DNA of 64,000 nucleotides from a candidate division WOR-1 bacterium RIFCSPLOWO2_02_FULL_46_20 (GCA_001771365.1 METP01000033.1:11325-75324); one strand, 5' to 3'; numbered from the stretch's first letter, positions 5,736-30,228 are shown. Numbers and translations: made by a program. Notes: generated by a model not told the origin, from the letters alone.

Positions 5736-6368
5736 ATGTATATGAAATCTCGACGAGTCCTGTTTTTATTGCTGTTTATCATCGCTACAAGCTCAGCTTT
5801 GGCACAAAAACTTACTCCGCCGGCAATTGCGCCGGCTCTCCCGCCTATTGAAGTGGCCACGCGAGAACCTATCTCTCTCCCGCCGCCGCCGTCAACAAGC
5901 GAAGCCGAATTCGAAGTTCCCGGCCAGGAGACAGGAATATATAAATGGGGGATTGATAGCGATGCCAGCGCATCACTTTTATTAAGTTCTGCTATGGTCC
6001 TGGGAGGAAGGTTTAACATCCTGCTGCCAGACCCCTGGCAACTGGGAACCCAGATTGGCCTGGCCGAGGATGCTTTGGAGTTTAAAACCGGTCTGGGTTT
6101 AGCCATTGGCCAAACGAGCGCACTCCCTCTCTTTGCCGAAGCAGTGCTTTATCTAAAAGAAAAATCATTTTATAACCTGGACCCATATGTTGGCGTGGGG
6201 TTAAACTATACAAGCAAGCTGGGCAGTCAAATTTTTGCCGGGGTTTTGTATGATCTTGGGATTTATTCCGGCCAACTCGGCATAGAGGCAGGCTACCAGA
6301 CAATAAATTTAGCCACGACCCAAAGCCAAGGGTTCTTTCTCTCCGTTATTAGGCCAATTAGGCTGTAA
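5736..6368 (+). CDS. Secreted protein with a Pro-rich N-terminal region; possibly an outer-membrane beta-barrel-like protein
   Basis: The signal peptide is MYMKSRRVLFLLLFIIATSSALAQ. The C-terminal half shows alternating hydrophobic Gly/Tyr-rich beta-strand patterning (GVGLNYTSKLGSQIFAGVLYDLGIYSGQLGIEAGYQ). A TTGACT-17-TATGCT promoter lies at 5704-5732. Confidence 0.45.
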   Translation: MYMKSRRVLFLLLFIIATSSALAQKLTPPAIAPALPPIEVATREPISLPPPPSTSEAEFEVPGQETGIYKWGIDSDASASLLLSSAMVLGGRFNILLPDPWQLGTQIGLAEDALEFKTGLGLAIGQTSALPLFAEAVLYLKEKSFYNLDPYVGVGLNYTSKLGSQIFAGVLYDLGIYSGQLGIEAGYQTINLATTQSQGFFLSVIRPIRL

Positions 6369-6382
6369 AGCCAGCAACAAAA

Positions 6383-9300
6383 TTATGCCCTGTGATAATC
6401 CTGAATCGCTTTTACGTCAAAACCTTTTTTCTTGGCCGCCTCCAAACCGTTTACAGTTGCCCTGGCTCCGGAGATTGTCGTGATCAAAGGAATGTTATGC
6501 ATAACCGCCAGCGAACGCATTTTTGCTTCATCAATCTTGGTGGTTTTTCCTCCCGGGGTGTTAATCAAAAAACCAATCTTGCCTTTGTTGATCAGGTCTA
6601 GAACGCTGGATTTGCCTTTGCCTATTTTGTCGACAATAGAAACTTCAATGCCGTTCTTTTTTAGGGCCCGACCGGTGCCAGCGGTTGCCACAATGCTGTA
6701 GCCAAGATCAACAAGCTTCTTGACAATAAAAACAATCGAGCGTTTGTCCTGGTTTTTAACACTGACAAAGACGTTGCCGGACATCGGAAATTTCTGCCCC
6801 GCGGCCAACTGTGCTTTCATAAATGCGCTGCCGTAATCAGCGTCAATCCCCATAACCTCGCCGGTTGACTTCATTTCCGGGCCTAAAACCGCGTCCGCTC
6901 CGGGAAAACGATTGAAAGGGAAAACCGCTTCCTTTACCGCGACATGATCAATCTCAACCTCCTTGTCAATCCCCTGCTCTTTTAGGCTCTTCCCAATCAT
7001 TACTTTGGTTGCCACTTTAGCCCAGGGAATCCCGGTCGCCTTGCTCACAAAAGGGACAGTACGCGAAGCCCGCGGGTTAACCTCTAAGACATATAATATA
7101 TCGCCGCGAACCGCATACTGGATATTCATCAAGCCTATTACTTTCAGTTCTTTGGCCAGGATATAAGTTGTCTTTTTTATTTCCTCGATCATTTCATCAG
7201 AGAGAGAAAAGGGCGGGATAGCACAAGCCGAATCGCCGGAATGGATGCCGGCTTCTTCAATATGCTCCATAATACCGCAAACCACCGTCTTTTTACCATC
7301 GGACACGGCATCAACATCAACCTCAATCGCGTCTTCGAGGAATTTATCAATTAAGATAGGATGTTCCGGGGAAACATCAACCGCCCATTTCATAAATTGT
7401 CCGAGATCCGCATCATCATAAACGATTTCCATGGCCCGGCCGCCCAGGACATACGATGGCCTCACCAAGACAGGATAGCCAATACGTTTGGCAGCTTTTT
7501 TTGCTTCAGCAAAAGAGCGCGCGGTGCCGTTTGACGGCTGTTTTAATTTAAGTTTTTTTAATACTTTCTGAAAGAGCTTGCGGTCTTCGGCTTTATCAAT
7601 GCTTTTGGGCGAGGTGCCGATAATCTTGCCGCCCGATTTTTGGATCGGGATCGCCAGATTAAGCGGAGTCTGGCCGCCAAACTGGACAATAATCCCGTCG
7701 GGCTTTTCTTTTTCTATAATATGCACGACATCTTCTTTGGTTAACGGCTCAAAATATAGCTTATCGGATGTATCATAATCCGTGGAAACCGTTTCCGGAT
7801 TGGAATTAACCATAATTGATTCATAGCCCTCTTCCCGTAAAGCAAAAGAGGCGTGGCAGCAGCAATAGTCAAATTCTATCCCCTGGCCGATACGGTTGGG
7901 CCCGCCACCCAAGATCATCACCTTTTTCTTGCGTGACGGCTTTGATTCGCATTCACTTTCATAAGTTGAATAATAATACGGCGTGTGCGCCTCAAACTCA
8001 GCGGCGCAAGTATCAACCAGCTTATAAACAGGCTTAATGTTCTGCTCATCACGCATTTTTTTTATCTCATCTTCTGTTTTATCTTTGAGATAAGCTAATT
8101 GTTTGTCGGAAAAACCCAGGCGCTTCATTTCCCAAAGGGACAAATCGGCCCTGGGAGCCTCTATAATTTGTTTCATATTTTCCAGAAACCAGGGGTCAAC
8201 AAATGTTAATTTATTAATTTCATCAATCGACATCCCCTGTTCAATTGCCTGTTTGATATAAAAAATCCGGCGGTCATTAGGGGTTTTTAGATTCCCAATC
8301 AGATTAGCCGTATCAATAAAACACTTGCCGTCGTGCCCCAGACCGGCCCGCCCCACCTCAAGTGAGCGCAATCCTTTTTGCAAAGCCTCTTTAAAAGTCC
8401 GGCCAATGGCCATTGTCTCCCCAACCGATTTCATAGATGTTCCCAGCACGGAATCAGCATCCTTAAATTTTTCAAAAGTAAAGCGCGGGATTTTGACAAC
8501 GCAATAATCGATGGTCGGTTCAAACGACGCCGGAGTCTTCCTGGTAATATCATTACTGATCTCGTCCAGCGTATAACCGACCGAAAGCTTGGCCGCAAAT
8601 TTGGCAATGGGGAAGCCAGTTGCCTTTGAAGCCAGGGCCGAAGAACGGGAAACCCGCGGATTCATCTCAATAATAACCATGCGGCCGTTCTTTGGATCAA
8701 CCGCAAATTGAATGTTTGAACCACCGGTCTCAACACCAATCGCCCGGATGCAACGGATAGAAGCGTCGCGCATAAGTTGATATTCTTTATCGGTCAAGGT
8801 TTGTGCCGGAGCAACCGTAATTGAGTCTCCGGTATGGATCCCCATCGCGTCAAAGTTTTCAATGGAACAGACAATAACCACATTGTCTTTTTTATCCCGC
8901 ATCACTTCGAGCTCAAATTCTTTCCAGCCGGTTAAATCTTCTTCAATCAAGACCTGGTGGGTAGGCGAGAGCTCAAGGCCATACTTAACAACTTTTTCAT
9001 ATTCCTCGGATGTGTGAGCCACACCAGAACCTGTCCCGCCCAATGTAAAGCTGGGCCTAATAATTGTCGGTAAACCGACATATCCCAAAATTTTCTCGGC
9101 TGCCTCCCAGGTCGAAGCATGGCCACTGAGGGGAAGATCAATCCTGGCTTTTGTCATCGCTTCCTTAAACTGTTGGCGGTCCTCCGCCCGTTTAATCGCC
9201 GCTAAATTAGCGCCAATCATCTCAACCCCAAACTTTTCCAAAACACCCATTTCGGCCACAGCAACTGCCGTATTTAAACCTGTCTGCCCTCCCAGGGTTG

Positions 9301-18982: not shown

Positions 18983-19066
18983 GCCCAGGTGGCGGAACTG
19001 GCAGACGCGCTAGCTTCAGGAGCTAGTGGGGTCAAACCCGTGGAGGTTCAAATCCTCTCCTGGGCA
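18983..19066 (+). tRNA. tRNA-Leu (anticodon CAG), type II; CCA not encoded
   Basis: Manual fold: acceptor GCCCAGG/CCTGGGC, anticodon stem CTAGC/GCTAG with loop TTCAGGA, T arm GGAGG-TTCAAAT-CCTCT. Confidence 0.8.
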
Positions 19067-19176
19067 TTTGAATTTTACCGCAAACCATTCCGTGCCGCGC
19101 TGGCCCTTCTGATTATACTCAACCCTCCCCAGCGGGCGCGTACCTTCAGCCCCCACTCAAATAATTGCGCCCGCTC
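19067..19176. repeat. Direct repeat copy 1 (92 nt identical to 23170-23261, about 110 nt similar), immediately 3' of tRNA-Leu(CAG); left boundary of the R-M island
   Basis: Read directly from the sequence. tttgaattttaccgcaaaccattccgtgccgcgctggcccttctgattatactcaaccctccccagcgggcgcgtaccttcagcccccactc is identical in both copies. The following roughly 20 nt are related. Confidence 0.9.
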
Positions 19177-23083: not shown

Positions 23084-23169
23084 TTTTTTCTTGCATCCAT
23101 GAATGGTGTTGGGTATAATCAATGAGATAGCCCGGCATTGAATGGTTTGAGAACCAGAGGGTCGAGGCA
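23084..23169 (+). promoter_or_regulatory. Near-consensus sigma70 promoter (TTGCAT-17-TATAAT, 23091-23119) plus a 40-nt leader gcccggcattgaatggtttgagaaccagagggtcgaggca; copy A of a duplicated module
   Basis: Read directly from the sequence. About 85 nt are shared with 30144-30228 (ttcttgca.cc.tgaat.g.gttgggtataat … gcccggc..tgaatggtttgagaaccagagggtcgaggca). Confidence 0.6.
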
Positions 23170-23280
23170 TTTGAATTTTACCGCAAACCATTCCGTGCCG
23201 CGCTGGCCCTTCTGATTATACTCAACCCTCCCCAGCGGGCGCGTACCTTCAGCCCCCACTCGCATAAATGGCGCCCGCTG
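23170..23280. repeat. Direct repeat copy 2 (right boundary of the R-M island)
   Basis: The first 92 nt are identical to copy 1. Both copies contain the stem ccagcgggcgcg … ggcgcccgct. Confidence 0.9.
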
Positions 23281-23558
23281 ACAAGTAAATCGACACGATT
23301 TATTTTTTTGCCCTTGACACTGCTGAATTCTCTGCCATATAATTCCACTTAGTGGTAAGGGGGAATTCGCTAAGATGGATCATCTATCTGTCTAAAAACC
23401 AGTCCCTCCACTTTTTAATAAGGTGCGGCCCGGATTTCTCTTCTTGACAGAGGCAAACTAAAATAGCATAATTTGTTTGTAAATGCTTCAAAGAGGGGAA
23501 CGGCGGAGTCAATCAGCCCATTTTGTGTCAGTATCGCAGATTTTCCGGGACGGTATAA

Positions 23559-24074
23559 ATGGTTAAAGACAAGATAGATCAAATACTTGAAAAGATCGAT
23601 TCGTTAGAAACCGGTCAGAAGTCATTAGTAGCCGGTCAGAAGTCATTAGAAACCGGTCAGAAGTCATTAGTAGCCGGTCAGAAGTCATTAGTAGCCGGTC
23701 AGAAGTCATTAGAAACCGGTCAGAAGTCATTGGAAACCGGTCAGAAGTCATTGGAAACCGGTCAGAAGTCATTAGTGGCCGGTCAGAAGTCATTAGAAAC
23801 CGGTCAGAAGTCATTAGTAGCCGGTCAGAATAAAAATTATGGTTTGATTCAAAAACAAGGCATCATGCTGGAACAGGTCGCTTCTGATGTAAAAGCAGTG
23901 GCGGAAGGACATGCGGCAATAAGGAATGAAATGCAAAGAGGATTTGAAGAAGTTAAAGAACAAATAAAATTCGTGGATGATAAATTGGGATTTGTAGCTA
24001 ATCAGCTTGGCGAAAAAATCGATCGCGTTGAGCAGAAACTGGACGAGCACGTCAAACTGCCAGCACATGTTTAG
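23559..24074 (+). CDS. Tandem-heptad-repeat protein (ETGQKSL / VAGQKSL, about 17 repeats) with a coiled-coil-like C-terminal domain
   Basis: Built from 21-bp DNA tandem repeats (23607-23830). Two upstream sigma70-like promoters lie at 23315-23343 (TTGACA…CATATAAT) and 23444-23471 (TTGACA-16-CATAAT). No signal peptide is present. Confidence 0.6.
   Translation: MVKDKIDQILEKIDSLETGQKSLVAGQKSLETGQKSLVAGQKSLVAGQKSLETGQKSLETGQKSLETGQKSLVAGQKSLETGQKSLVAGQNKNYGLIQKQGIMLEQVASDVKAVAEGHAAIRNEMQRGFEEVKEQIKFVDDKLGFVANQLGEKIDRVEQKLDEHVKLPAHV
23607..23830 (+). repeat. About 10.5 tandem copies of a 21-bp unit (gaaaccggtcagaagtcatta / gtagccggtcagaagtcatta) inside the CDS
   Basis: Read directly from the sequence. 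The repeat is in-frame, so each unit encodes one heptad. Confidence 0.9.
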
Positions 24075-26971: not shown

Positions 26972-27688
26972 TTATTTATCAACTAAACATAAAAGAAAAC
27001 GGTAAACTGCCGCGACATTAGCCAAATGGCCGTCAACCAGGCTACCTCCGCCGAACCCCACCTTAATAGAAAAACCCACCCCCTTTAACGCCCTAAAGGC
27101 GTCTTCATCAGTCTTATCGTCGCCGATATAAACAGGAGCATATTTTTGCAGCTTCAGGTTTTTAATAAGCCAGCGTACCGCCTTCCCTTTATCCCAATCA
27201 GCCGGCGGGCGGACATCAAATATTTTTTTGCCGGTCGTTATCTTAATGGCACGCCGCCACGGTTTAAGCGCCAGCTTAAAATCCCTTTTGAAAGCATGGA
27301 TAGCTGACATGGCAAGTGAGCGATAATGGACGCTAAGGGTCAAGCCTTTATCTTCAATCAATAAGCCCCGGTAATGGAGTTTGTTCTTAAGTTCGGCTTT
27401 GATCTTTTTTAGCAGCGGAAGTGTTTTTTTTGCGGCCGGATGCACCCAATGCTTCCCGCTGGCCAATATCTCAAACCCGTGGTTGCCAACATAAATAATA
27501 TTACGGATACCAGCCAGTCTTTTGACAACCGATAACTTACGGCCGGAGATGATCGCCAATTTAATTTCGGGATGGCGGGCTAACCGTTTGAGCAGTTTTT
27601 TTCTGGGCGCGGACAGGACTGCCCGTTGCGGATTTTCGACGATAGGCGTCAGCGTTCCGTCATAATCGAGCATCAGGAATAACTTCAT
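26972..27688 (-). CDS. otsB: Trehalose-6-phosphate phosphatase (HAD-IIB)
   Basis: Carries LMLDYDGTLTP (HAD motif I) and IGDDKTDEDAFRAL (T6PP motif). The start was placed at MKLFLM, which immediately abuts the otsA stop. Confidence 0.8.
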   Translation of the reverse strand: MKLFLMLDYDGTLTPIVENPQRAVLSAPRKKLLKRLARHPEIKLAIISGRKLSVVKRLAGIRNIIYVGNHGFEILASGKHWVHPAAKKTLPLLKKIKAELKNKLHYRGLLIEDKGLTLSVHYRSLAMSAIHAFKRDFKLALKPWRRAIKITTGKKIFDVRPPADWDKGKAVRWLIKNLKLQKYAPVYIGDDKTDEDAFRALKGVGFSIKVGFGGGSLVDGHLANVAAVYRFLLCLVDK

Positions 27689-29919
27689 GTTTTTTGCAGT
27701 TCGGTCAGGTTGGTGATAATACTTGCCGCCCATTTATAAACATTGTTGTCGGCTACGACCTTACGCATGCTCTCCATGCGCCGCTTTTGTTCTTCCGGCG
27801 GCATGACGCAGGCAGTCTTGAGGCTGTCGGCAAACTCTTCGATGGCATAAGGGTTGATCTGCAGCGCTTCGGTCAGCTCCCTGGCCGCGCCGGTAAATTT
27901 ACTTAAGAGCAGGACTCCCGCCAGGTCATTCTTTGCCGCCACGTATTCTTTAGCCACCAGGTTCATACCATCGTGCAGCGAACTGACGACGCAAATGTCG
28001 CCGAGCCGGTAATAAGGCTTGATCTCCTCCGGAGTAAAGTACTCTTTTAAGTAGATTATCGGTCGCCAGGCGCCGTTGGTATATTTGCTGTTCTTTTTTT
28101 CTATCAACCGCTCGATCTCGTCCGACAGGTCGTGGTAGCGTTTGATCTTGGTCCGGCTGGGAGCGGCCAACTGCAAAAAGACGAACTTGTTCAGGTATTC
28201 CGGATATTTTCCCAGGAAACGGTCGACGGCCAGGATTCTTTCAACAATACCTTTCGTATAATCAATCCGGTCAACGCCGACGGCCACGATTTTTCCGGCC
28301 AGATCGTATTTCTCTCTTATCCGGTCGATCTCCCTGGCTTCATTGGCTGTGACCGAATAGCGTGATACCCCCTCGATGCTGATCGGGAATGGCCGGACCA
28401 GCGTTTCTTTGCCTGACCTGACAACGCTGTTCTTCTCGTTATCAACACGGCATTCCAGCAGGCGGTTGGCGGTTTCCAGAAAATTATTACAATGATATTG
28501 CACATGGAAGCCGACCAGGTCGCACCCCAGCATCCCATCCAGTATCTCTTTTTGATAAGGACAGACGGAAAAGACCTCCGGGTTCGGCCAGGGGATATGC
28601 CAGAAGAGCGCGATCGTGACATCCGGCCGCTTGTCCTTGATCATCTTGCCCAGCAGCGTGAAATGATAATCCTGGATAAAAACAAAGGCATTTTTGGCCG
28701 GCAGCTCCTCAATAACGCTGTCAGCAAACTTTTGGTTTACCTGTTTATACATCTGCCAGTCGGCTTCCCGGAAGATCGGGCGGGTGAAAGTAATATGACT
28801 AAGCGGCCAGAGGCCTTCGTTGGCAAAACCGTAATAGAAGCCGCCTTCCTCTTCGGGCGTCAGCCAAATTCTTTTTAGGATGTAGCGATTGTCTTCGGGC
28901 GGTACCCCGAGCTTGTCCTTGGAATTCACGAATTGCCGATCGGCGTTGCCGCTCCCCTGGGCAATCCAGGTTCCGCCGCAGGCCCGCATGATCGGATTGA
29001 GTGCCGTCACCACGCCGCTGGCCGGACGGACATATTTTGCCGCCCCCGTCCGCTCATCAAGCACGTGCATGAACGGCTCCCGGTTGGAAACAATAACCAT
29101 AGAGCTGTCGCCGAGTTTGGCGTTGACCAGGTCCTTTAATTTACTTTCCGTCCAGATCTCGTCCTTTTTCAATCTGATCGTGGCCGCTTCGGCCATGCTC
29201 TTTTTGGCCACCCTCAGGCTAAGGGCAACCTGCTCAACCTCACTGGCCAGCTCACCTAATTCACTCTTTTGGCTGATCTCATGCATCTTGCTGGTTTCAC
29301 CCTTCTGGAAATGTTTGAACCAAACCGTGAGCTGCCGCATCGGCACCAGAAACATCTGGCGGAGTACCAGCGCGGCAATGAGCAACAGCGAAATAACCAG
29401 CAAGACCAGCGTGATGATCATGTTCCGCCAAAAGTCCATTGACCGGGCAAAAACATAAGAGGTGTCATAGATCATCTCGACCATGCCAAGTATTTTCCCC
29501 TGGTCATCAAGCACCGGTATAATGTGGCTATAGACATAGATTTTTTTGAATTTCCCCAACAGGTCACTGGCTTCCTTGTTTTTAAGGGCATCTCGATAAT
29601 ATTCGCGCTCTTCGTCTTTCCAATCCCTGAACCTCTCCGTGATCGCTATTAATTTCCCTTCCCGATCGTAAAGCGCGCAGCCCTGGATATTCTTTTTATT
29701 CTGGAATCTCTTAACCAGACGTTGAGCCCCGGCTTGGTCATTATTGGCAAGAACATAACCGGCCGACAACTCCAGGCTTTCCGCGACAGTTTCGGCTTTC
29801 CGCTTGAGATCATCCATTAGTTTATCTTCTTCATATCTGACCTGGATAACGCCAAAAATGATGATAACCAGCGAAACGATGATGATAAGCGGCAAAGCAA
29901 AGACAATTGTTTTTTTCAT
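27685..29919 (-). CDS. otsA: Trehalose-6-phosphate synthase (GT20 OtsA domain) fused to an N-terminal TM–extracytoplasmic sensor–TM–HAMP module
   Basis: The GT20 core runs from about aa 269 (VIVSNREP…, FANEGLWPLSH, FIQDYHFTLLG, FWHIPWP). The N-terminus has TM1 at about aa 7-27, a loop of about 140 aa, TM2 (MIITLVLLVISLLLIAALVL) and a HAMP-like segment PMRQLTVWFKHFQKGE…SELGELASEVEQVALSL. Confidence 0.8.
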   Translation of the reverse strand: MKKTIVFALPLIIIVSLVIIIFGVIQVRYEEDKLMDDLKRKAETVAESLELSAGYVLANNDQAGAQRLVKRFQNKKNIQGCALYDREGKLIAITERFRDWKDEEREYYRDALKNKEASDLLGKFKKIYVYSHIIPVLDDQGKILGMVEMIYDTSYVFARSMDFWRNMIITLVLLVISLLLIAALVLRQMFLVPMRQLTVWFKHFQKGETSKMHEISQKSELGELASEVEQVALSLRVAKKSMAEAATIRLKKDEIWTESKLKDLVNAKLGDSSMVIVSNREPFMHVLDERTGAAKYVRPASGVVTALNPIMRACGGTWIAQGSGNADRQFVNSKDKLGVPPEDNRYILKRIWLTPEEEGGFYYGFANEGLWPLSHITFTRPIFREADWQMYKQVNQKFADSVIEELPAKNAFVFIQDYHFTLLGKMIKDKRPDVTIALFWHIPWPNPEVFSVCPYQKEILDGMLGCDLVGFHVQYHCNNFLETANRLLECRVDNEKNSVVRSGKETLVRPFPISIEGVSRYSVTANEAREIDRIREKYDLAGKIVAVGVDRIDYTKGIVERILAVDRFLGKYPEYLNKFVFLQLAAPSRTKIKRYHDLSDEIERLIEKKNSKYTNGAWRPIIYLKEYFTPEEIKPYYRLGDICVVSSLHDGMNLVAKEYVAAKNDLAGVLLLSKFTGAARELTEALQINPYAIEEFADSLKTACVMPPEEQKRRMESMRKVVADNNVYKWAASIITNLTELQKT

Positions 29920-30143: not shown

Positions 30144-30228
30144 TTCTTCTTGCACCCGTGAATTGAGTTGGGTATAATAAAAGTGATGGCCCGGCCCTGA
30201 ATGGTTTGAGAACCAGAGGGTCGAGGCA
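30144..30228 (+). promoter_or_regulatory. Copy B of the promoter–leader module (TTGCAC-17-TATAAT at 30150-30178 plus a 40-nt leader), oriented antisense to the 3' end of the Ca-ATPase gene
   Basis: About 85 nt are shared with 23084-23169. The sequence diverges after gtcgaggca. Confidence 0.55.

Follow-up and report, generated by a model that had tools for sequence, protein, structure and literature searches.

A coding heptad array of variable copy number in a predicted coiled-coil protein of candidate division WOR-1 (Saganbacteria)

The closest functional analogue documented for the gene described here is NeuO, the O-acetyltransferase of the E. coli K1 prophage CUS-3, which carries an N-terminal poly-psi array of RLKTQDS heptads; the coding tandem repeat undergoes strand slippage, natural isolates carry 1-31 heptads and the properties of the protein scale with heptad number (PMC3046976). 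The likeness lies in the variable number of slippage-type coding heptads. Since the repeat unit of NeuO is 7 nt long, only every third copy number keeps the frame and the gene is switched on and off, whereas the unit of the gene under study is 21 nt long and length alone is affected. Furthermore, the NeuO array is attached to an enzyme and is disordered in the crystal, while the array of our protein lies within a predicted continuous helix without an enzyme domain, and the two proteins share no sequence homology. In-frame coding repeats whose number varies between close strains are also present in the streptococcal M and alpha-C proteins and in the mycoplasma Vlp/Vsa proteins. Many of these proteins have a fibrillar or coiled-coil form; all are exported or anchored to the cell and exposed to immune selection by the host. 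In contrast, our protein belongs to a Saganbacterium of groundwater, lacks signals for export or anchoring and is not homologous to them. Another system to be compared is the Braun lipoprotein Lpp, which sets the width of the periplasm, carries a signal peptide as a lipoprotein and has one fixed length in nature. Here the likeness to Lpp and to molecular rulers in general, i.e. a small homo-oligomeric helical rod in which gain or loss of heptads changes a physical distance, is hypothetical, and the NCBIfam and Pfam models of Lpp matched some members of the family below threshold only.

The gene lies in a stretch of 64,000 nucleotides (hereafter the window) from candidate division WOR-1 bacterium RIFCSPLOWO2_02_FULL_46_20 (METP01000033.1:11325-75324), and the AccA protein encoded in the window has the same sequence as OGC05854.1 from candidate division WOR-1 (Saganbacteria). 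The transcription unit stands alone, and its features are collected in the table below. A preliminary description of this DNA, made from the sequence alone, had pointed to a gene built from tandem 21-bp repeats, and this array is real: the ORF of 171 aa contains 11 in-frame heptads, and Tandem Repeats Finder reported a single array at 23604-23830 with a period of 21, 10.8 copies, 91% matches, a score of 363 and no indels. Ten full units are followed by a last unit, LVAGQNK, which continues into unique sequence, and the 12-nt core GGTCAGAAGTCA occurs without mismatch in each of the ten full units. The two unit variants proposed earlier are correct for the peptide (LETGQKS and LVAGQKS) and not for the DNA, where four variants result from synonymous TTA/TTG and GTA/GTG changes. 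Nor do the units strictly alternate, as had been stated, their order being ET VA ET VA VA ET ET ET VA ET VA. The longest exact internal repeat of the array measures 58 bp, thus any assembly with k >= 59 resolves the array unambiguously. Two minus-strand ORFs (23563-23814 and 23814-24068) were rejected as genes, as they lack homologues and arise from the repeat and from the composition of the coding strand. A second family member was not found within the 64-kb window.

Table. Features of the heptad-array gene and of its neighbours. Positions are those of the window, except for the last row, where they refer to the loci named.
Feature	Position	Strand	Basis or remark
Coiled-coil protein gene, 171 aa, AEGH-core family	23559..24074	+	ATG-initiated ORF, homologues
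Promoter-like site P1, TTGACA-18-TATAAT, 12/12	23314..23343	+	putative; motif match only
Promoter-like site P2, TTGACA-17-CATAAT, 11/12	23444..23472	+	aligns with promoter and leader of orthologues
Ribosome-binding-like purine-rich GGGACGG	23547..23553	+	5 nt 5' of the ATG
Conserved N-terminal helix MVKDKIDQILEKIDS	23559..23603	+	heptad register shared with the array
Array of 11 in-frame 21-bp units, LETGQKS / LVAGQKS	23604..23834	+	length-variable segment
Conserved C-terminal core NYGLIQKQGIMLEQVASDVKAVAEGH...KLDEHVKLPAHV	23835..24071	+	family-defining; alignments
AEGH motif codons, A115-E116-G117-H118	23901..23912	+	alignments and register
C-terminal tail EHVKLPAHV	24045..24071	+	conserved in the Saganbacteria-type subfamily
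CheB methylesterase domain ORF, 148-157 aa	24144-24617	+	convergent gene directly after
GVYG-type neighbours of family members	L007 6082-7776 and 8303-9952; L010 12-3374; L013 6315-8972; L016 351-2030; L034 2-1513

Both consensus-like promoters of the preliminary description are present upstream of the gene as sigma-70-like sites, although the number of promoter-like sites in the region, three observed against 2.6 expected from shuffles, is by itself not significant. P1 begins 5 bp past a terminator-like hairpin, has no counterpart in the upstream alignment of the orthologues and is specific to the window locus. The -10 box of P2, together with the leader behind it, can be aligned with the orthologues L003, L005, L006, L009 and L015, which share a promoter-like -10 box and then a conserved leader, TATAAT-T..TTG.GGATATTTAAGGAGGGG...AAATG, and P2, as far as can be judged from this alignment, is probably the promoter of the gene itself. 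At the position of the GGGACGG of the window, the orthologues carry GGAGG or GGGG. The leader of the window gene (23473-23558) is about 45 nt longer than those of the same five orthologues, the additional nucleotides lying between a conserved GGGG-rich stretch and the start codon. No repeat tract was found in the promoter region. Further upstream, a promoter-like TTGCAT-17-TATAAT at 23091-23119 is followed by a strongly structured stretch at 23126-23310 (MFE -59.3 kcal/mol, z -4.0, none of 200 shuffles as good) that ends in a hairpin and a T-run at 23287-23309. The 5' part of 23091-23310, promoter included, recurs at 30150-30228 with 85% identity and resembles a decayed 3' end of a tRNA-Leu, so that 23091-23310 may represent a small RNA or a tRNA remnant. 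The Rfam search gave nothing above noise in the 5' region, the structured stretch included.

Subsequently, the homologous locus was fetched from other public assemblies by means of AccA, TreT and the CheB fragment, and the arrays were decoded, all length alleles being read from short-read metagenome assemblies. Eleven units in the order of the window were present in GCA_001772355.1, ERZ27254759 and ERZ28563660; ERZ4903185 and ERZ27254845 also carry 11 units, each with one synonymous SNP (GCC>GCA in unit 2 and TTA>CTA in unit 10, respectively). The JGI metagenome 3300025311 carries 13 units, which correspond to exactly one in-register 42-bp tandem duplication, and ERZ27254842 carries 2 units, which correspond to exactly one 189-bp deletion. 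The contig of ERZ27254754 begins within an array; at least 13 units are present, and their order is incompatible with the 11-unit allele and compatible with a 168-bp duplication. The flanks of the alleles are 99.7-100% identical (the lower figure includes the 42-bp array gap), with 0-5 substitutions over 16-21 kb, and the differences in copy number are exact multiples of 21 bp, all alleles keeping the frame and the C-terminus. Among the complete assemblies, seven of nine have the 11-unit allele (window counted), which is thus dominant. With near-identical head-to-tail units and whole-unit copy differences between the assemblies of near-identical genomes, the locus has the properties of a coding VNTR. 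From the assembled sequences we conclude that the locus appears to be length-polymorphic in the natural population, ranging from 2 to at least 13 heptads. The comparison with other strains that the preliminary description had suggested therefore bears out its proposal of a recent in-frame repeat expansion and a variable protein length, the near-identical genomes having 2, 11, 13 and at least 13 units. Polymorphism is seen, a very high mutation rate does not follow from it, and the 11-unit form prevails. As the unit comprises 21 bp, every change in copy number is in frame and yields length variation rather than on/off phase variation; phase variation, which had also been considered, was discarded, given a unit divisible by three, the absence of a repeat in the promoter and the frame kept in all observed alleles.

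The structure of the protein was predicted with AlphaFold2 for a single chain. The prediction consists of one uninterrupted helix spanning residues 2-166, with a mean pLDDT of 90.6 when 10 aligned sequences were used and of 94.6 with 45, while the pLDDT over the array was 96-98 in the two runs; past residue 166 the tail is predicted to be non-helical. When the Leu of the array is taken as position d, the heptad register is unbroken from residue 2 to about residue 146. The a positions are then occupied by I I Q(x11) I L V H M V V V and the d positions by V I L(x11), and H118 takes a core a position. Since the register is continuous, the array extends in phase the coiled-coil frame of the conserved flanks, and gain or loss of seven residues keeps the coiled-coil register. 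The protein thus combines a consistent a/d core with a predicted helix, as expected of a heptad coiled coil, with an array core that is unusually polar: stable coiled coils do not usually have a Gly in every heptad and a polar Gln at position a. AlphaFold2 frequently defaults to a long single helix for sequences of this kind, and a run on a single chain says nothing on oligomerisation. With the textbook helix rise of approximately 0.148 nm per residue, the predicted forms with 2, 11 and 13 heptads would be about 15, 24 and 26 nm long. A helical hairpin with AEGH at the turn was rejected because among family members the N-terminal arm and the C-terminal arm change in length independently of each other, and it is also contradicted by the straight helix in both AlphaFold2 runs. 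The sequence has no signal peptide, hydrophobic N-terminus or TM segment, and no lipobox or wall-anchor motif was found in its 171 aa. Alignments, AlphaFold2 and register therefore agree with the architecture outlined in the preliminary description, namely a short N-terminal helix and a C-terminal part of about 80 aa with coiled-coil character in a protein devoid of a signal peptide.

The best homologue (E 6e-42) is a hypothetical protein of a Saganbacteria MAG, and the E values of homologues range from 6e-42 to 1e-20, several proteins of 95-106 aa showing 65-72% identity over the C-terminal half. In a set with one genome per GTDB species we found five relatives, all five in Saganbacteria MAGs, and metagenomes provided 12 further loci. 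A profile search of 1.84 billion representatives yielded 380 clusters at E <= 1e-3 and 65 at E <= 1e-10; the matches cover mainly the C-terminal core, the family members among the matches listed are 54-231 aa long, and the window ORF scores 178 bits against the profile. Alignment of 45 diverse members left H118 as the only invariant residue, with A115, E116 and G117 conserved in at least 90% of them. The family is uncurated and was defined in this analysis by its AEGH core; the window protein carries the ...KAVAEGH... core with the invariant His and is small and all-helical. Within the family, the close subfamily shares the N-terminus M.K.KIDQVLEKI, kept across the Saganbacteria subfamily, and the C-terminal ...KLDEHVKLPAH(V/A). 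The exact 171-aa sequence is missing from the protein collection, though contigs that encode it were found by way of neighbouring genes, and we treat its absence as an index gap. The preliminary description had not recognised the family, and the curated libraries likewise gave no match above threshold: with Pfam, NCBIfam, PHROGs, PADLOC and PDB sequences, generic coiled coils were the only hits. The best PDB sequence matched the family profile with an E value of 0.02 (generic coiled coils), the PADLOC defence models matched coiled-coil segments of JetC and ZorA (E 5e-4 to 3e-3, 14-16 bits), and no PHROG matched the window protein at E <= 0.01. Homologues with the C-terminal domain and without repeats exist and none has a known function, hence they do not contradict the preliminary description, which had named repeat-free homologues of known function among possible counter-evidence.

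At the position of the array, the close orthologues contain 0-5 diverged heptads; short 21-bp repeats, with 2-2.8 copies, are likewise recurrent among the orthologues. Near-identical arrays with a lag of seven residues were detected in 29 of 158 members; their sequences are unrelated (AKLDAHS, GDISSMK, LDGKVSS, VETRLDR, RFDEHDR and others), and they sit either N- or C-terminal of the AEGH core. Moreover, in one cluster at 90% identity (P0156, a distant family member, with the forms P0183, P0189, P0190 and P0184), proteins of 126, 133 and 140 aa differ only by having 5, 6 or 7 AKLDAHx heptads. The recurrence of unrelated arrays, together with this series of five, six and seven heptads, indicates that recurrent, independent heptad expansion and polymorphism in copy number are properties of the family and not of this gene alone. 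In one variant of the P0156 cluster the otherwise invariant His is replaced by Arg (AEGR).

Similarity restricted to the array reaches an E value of 1e-20 and is distinct from membership in the family. XhlA (PF10779) and a group of proteins (P0005-P0031) with precomputed Pfam assignments PF28019, PF28175 and PF23991/DUF7310 are likewise small helical proteins with G-Q-containing heptad arrays of the LEAGQKS type; however, P0005-P0031 have the array alone in common with the window protein and lack the AEGH core. Their C-termini comprise a TM helix (XhlA-like), a PD-(D/E)XK/NERD-like domain in P0007 of Sulfodiicoccus and other coiled coils elsewhere. Identity of the window protein with XhlA was rejected, as the score was 7.9 bits against a cut-off of 34.7 and no hydrophobic C-terminal segment is present. 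In two assemblies of Sulfodiicoccus acidiphilus, the unrelated archaeal protein with a LEANQKS array and a nuclease-like C-terminus has 9 heptads (P0007, 262 aa) and 7 heptads (P0016, 248 aa) and is otherwise identical.

Upstream of the gene, on the other strand, an Eco57I-type methylase and a XamI-family endonuclease are encoded, and further upstream a ClpP/SDH-like protease, two tRNA-Leu genes and accD/accA. Downstream, a CheB methylesterase fragment is followed by a trehalose synthesis cluster on the other strand. The CheB ORF has no receiver, CheR or PAS part, was found in all related assemblies and is probably a truncated remnant. At 27685-29919 (-), a 744-aa product combines a dCache_1 sensor with a trehalose-6-phosphate synthase domain (Glyco_transf_20), an unusual fusion, and its gene clusters with those of trehalose phosphatase, DUF5752 and TreT. 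A 114-bp direct repeat with 96.5% identity between its copies (19063-19175 and 23166-23279) brackets the ClpP/SDH-like protease, a 72-aa ORF, the Eco57I-type methylase and the XamI endonuclease, the first copy beginning at the 3' end of tRNA-Leu(cag). No integrase was seen within the bracketed block, which from its sequence looks like an island with att-like ends. The gene sits just outside the right repeat, the end of which at 23279 is just upstream of the promoters of the gene, and its placement directly after a mobile island in the preliminary description is reasonable.

The surroundings of the close orthologues are unrelated to one another and often include genes of mobile or defence type (AbiEii, an HSDR_N fragment, a GIY-YIG fragment, AAA/DUF4143, a transposase), and the Pfam content of their neighbours is heterogeneous. 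An all-against-all BLAST of the ORFs within 5 kb at 17 loci revealed no partner common to the close orthologues. Recurrent neighbours were limited to secreted Gly-rich 'GVYG' proteins located beside short-form paralogues; they are 520-720 aa long, have signal peptides, flank the short-form members and have neither a Pfam match nor a homologue in the window. One short-form paralogue adjoins an SLH-domain protein, and at L034 two family paralogues lie side by side inside a cluster of secreted proteins. At L015, a locus of the JGI metagenome that also yielded the 13-unit allele, the orthologue (5938-6168) is cut short past AEGH and is followed by a DDE transposase (DUF772) at 6239-7573, a truncation probably caused by an IS insertion.

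That the true array has one fixed length and that short-read assemblers collapsed or expanded its copies is an unlikely explanation of the alleles. All data originate from short-read metagenome assemblies, in three of which (ERZ28563641, ERZ4903137 and ERZ27254754) a contig breaks off within the array, and the 2-unit allele occurs in one sample only; given the type of assembly and the three breaks inside the array, part of the length difference could thus be an assembly effect. However, the identical 11-unit order was recovered independently in seven assemblies (window counted), the longest exact repeat is far under k=141, the 13- and 2-unit versions each represent one clean in-register event, and the contigs that carry them bear a few private flank SNPs and hence come from distinct strains. 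In addition, a family member with an unrelated array has alleles of 5, 6 and 7 heptads in several samples. If the variation in length is genuine, it might serve a surface-exposed antigen in evading immunity or phages, as in the streptococcal M-like or mycoplasma Vlp/Vsa proteins, in which in-frame repeat size variation is typical. We regard this as very unlikely, even though several short-form paralogues reside in clusters of proteins with signal peptides and one of them next to the SLH-domain protein, because the sequence lacks a signal peptide, a lipobox, a TM segment and a wall-anchor motif, and because the close orthologues have unrelated neighbours.

Arrival of the gene with the neighbouring island as a phage or prophage protein, e.g. 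an XhlA-like lysis accessory, a tail-fibre assembly protein or a tape-measure-like protein, is highly improbable. The gene adjoins the restriction-modification island, some relatives by array only (P0005, P0012) have XhlA-like C-termini with a TM helix, weak sub-threshold matches to tape-measure families were obtained, and some paralogues lie beside Gly-rich secreted proteins loosely resembling fibre proteins. Yet a scan of 2.9 million viral contigs gave 121 pattern matches, not one of which codes for a relative, the window protein has no PHROG match, its XhlA score is far below the cut-off and no TM helix is present, and the neighbourhood has no phage genes. Moreover, the gene lies outside the right-hand direct repeat of the island, and the promoter and leader of the orthologues are conserved in non-phage contexts. 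The phage-related origin suggested in the preliminary description is hence not upheld, and neither is its alternative of an ice- or gas-vesicle-like protein. In a rival reading, the repeat would fold as a beta-roll or solenoid like the 7-residue-repeat ice-binding protein of grasses, with an ice-binding or surface-type function. Residues 22-91 match the Pfam model LbR_Ice_bind (PF21300) with an E value of 4.1e-5, and every heptad contains a Gly; the match, with 24 bits, is however below the curated cut-off of 30 and falls on a low-complexity repeat. The helix predicted over the array with high pLDDT in two runs, the register continuous with the flanking conserved helices, the different and typically helical arrays of other members at that place and the lack of a signal peptide make a beta-roll extremely improbable.

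We thus consider it likely that the gene encodes a single-helix protein, a coiled-coil rod with a heptad spacer whose length varies by slippage or recombination. According to this model, a small protein of cytoplasmic type would form one alpha-helix of about 165 residues, approximately 24 nm long if it is a coiled coil, and would most likely assemble into a parallel homo-oligomeric coiled-coil rod. In a single register, the rod would comprise the N-terminal helix, the (L-E/V-T/A-G-Q-K-S)n spacer with Leu at d and Gln at a, and the C-terminal core with the invariant AEGH, a His at a core position and the His-containing tail EHVKLPAHV. Replication slippage or unequal recombination between the 21-bp units would add or remove whole heptads, so that frame and coiled-coil register are always kept and only the length of the rod changes, by about 1 nm per heptad. 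The variable part would then be a length-setting spacer on a conserved end that may bind a partner or a ligand. The neighbourhoods of the close orthologues offer no conserved partner gene, which speaks against the model; our best guess as to the cellular role, weakly held, is a scaffold or spacer that is possibly linked to the cell envelope. A more far-reaching reading, which we find improbable, would see the AEGH-core proteins as a hitherto undescribed class of cytoplasmic 'adjustable ruler' coiled coils. Tuning of heptad number at the population level would set a physical spacing, e.g. in an assembly associated with the envelope or an appendage; a metal- or partner-binding head would be formed by the buried invariant His together with the His-containing tail, and repeat-driven length variation would be selected throughout the family as a general trait and not reflect a single expansion.

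Variation in size through in-frame repeats is familiar from the surface antigens of pathogens and is much less documented for small proteins free of export signals in free-living uncultivated bacteria. The analysis delineates a family open to description that comprises about 380 clusters and is uncurated; its practical importance is modest pending a function. In near-isogenic backgrounds, the locus offers a clean series of natural alleles with 2, 11, 13 and at least 13 heptads. Furthermore, since unrelated heptad arrays have expanded repeatedly around one conserved core, the family represents a convenient natural test of the effects of coiled-coil length.
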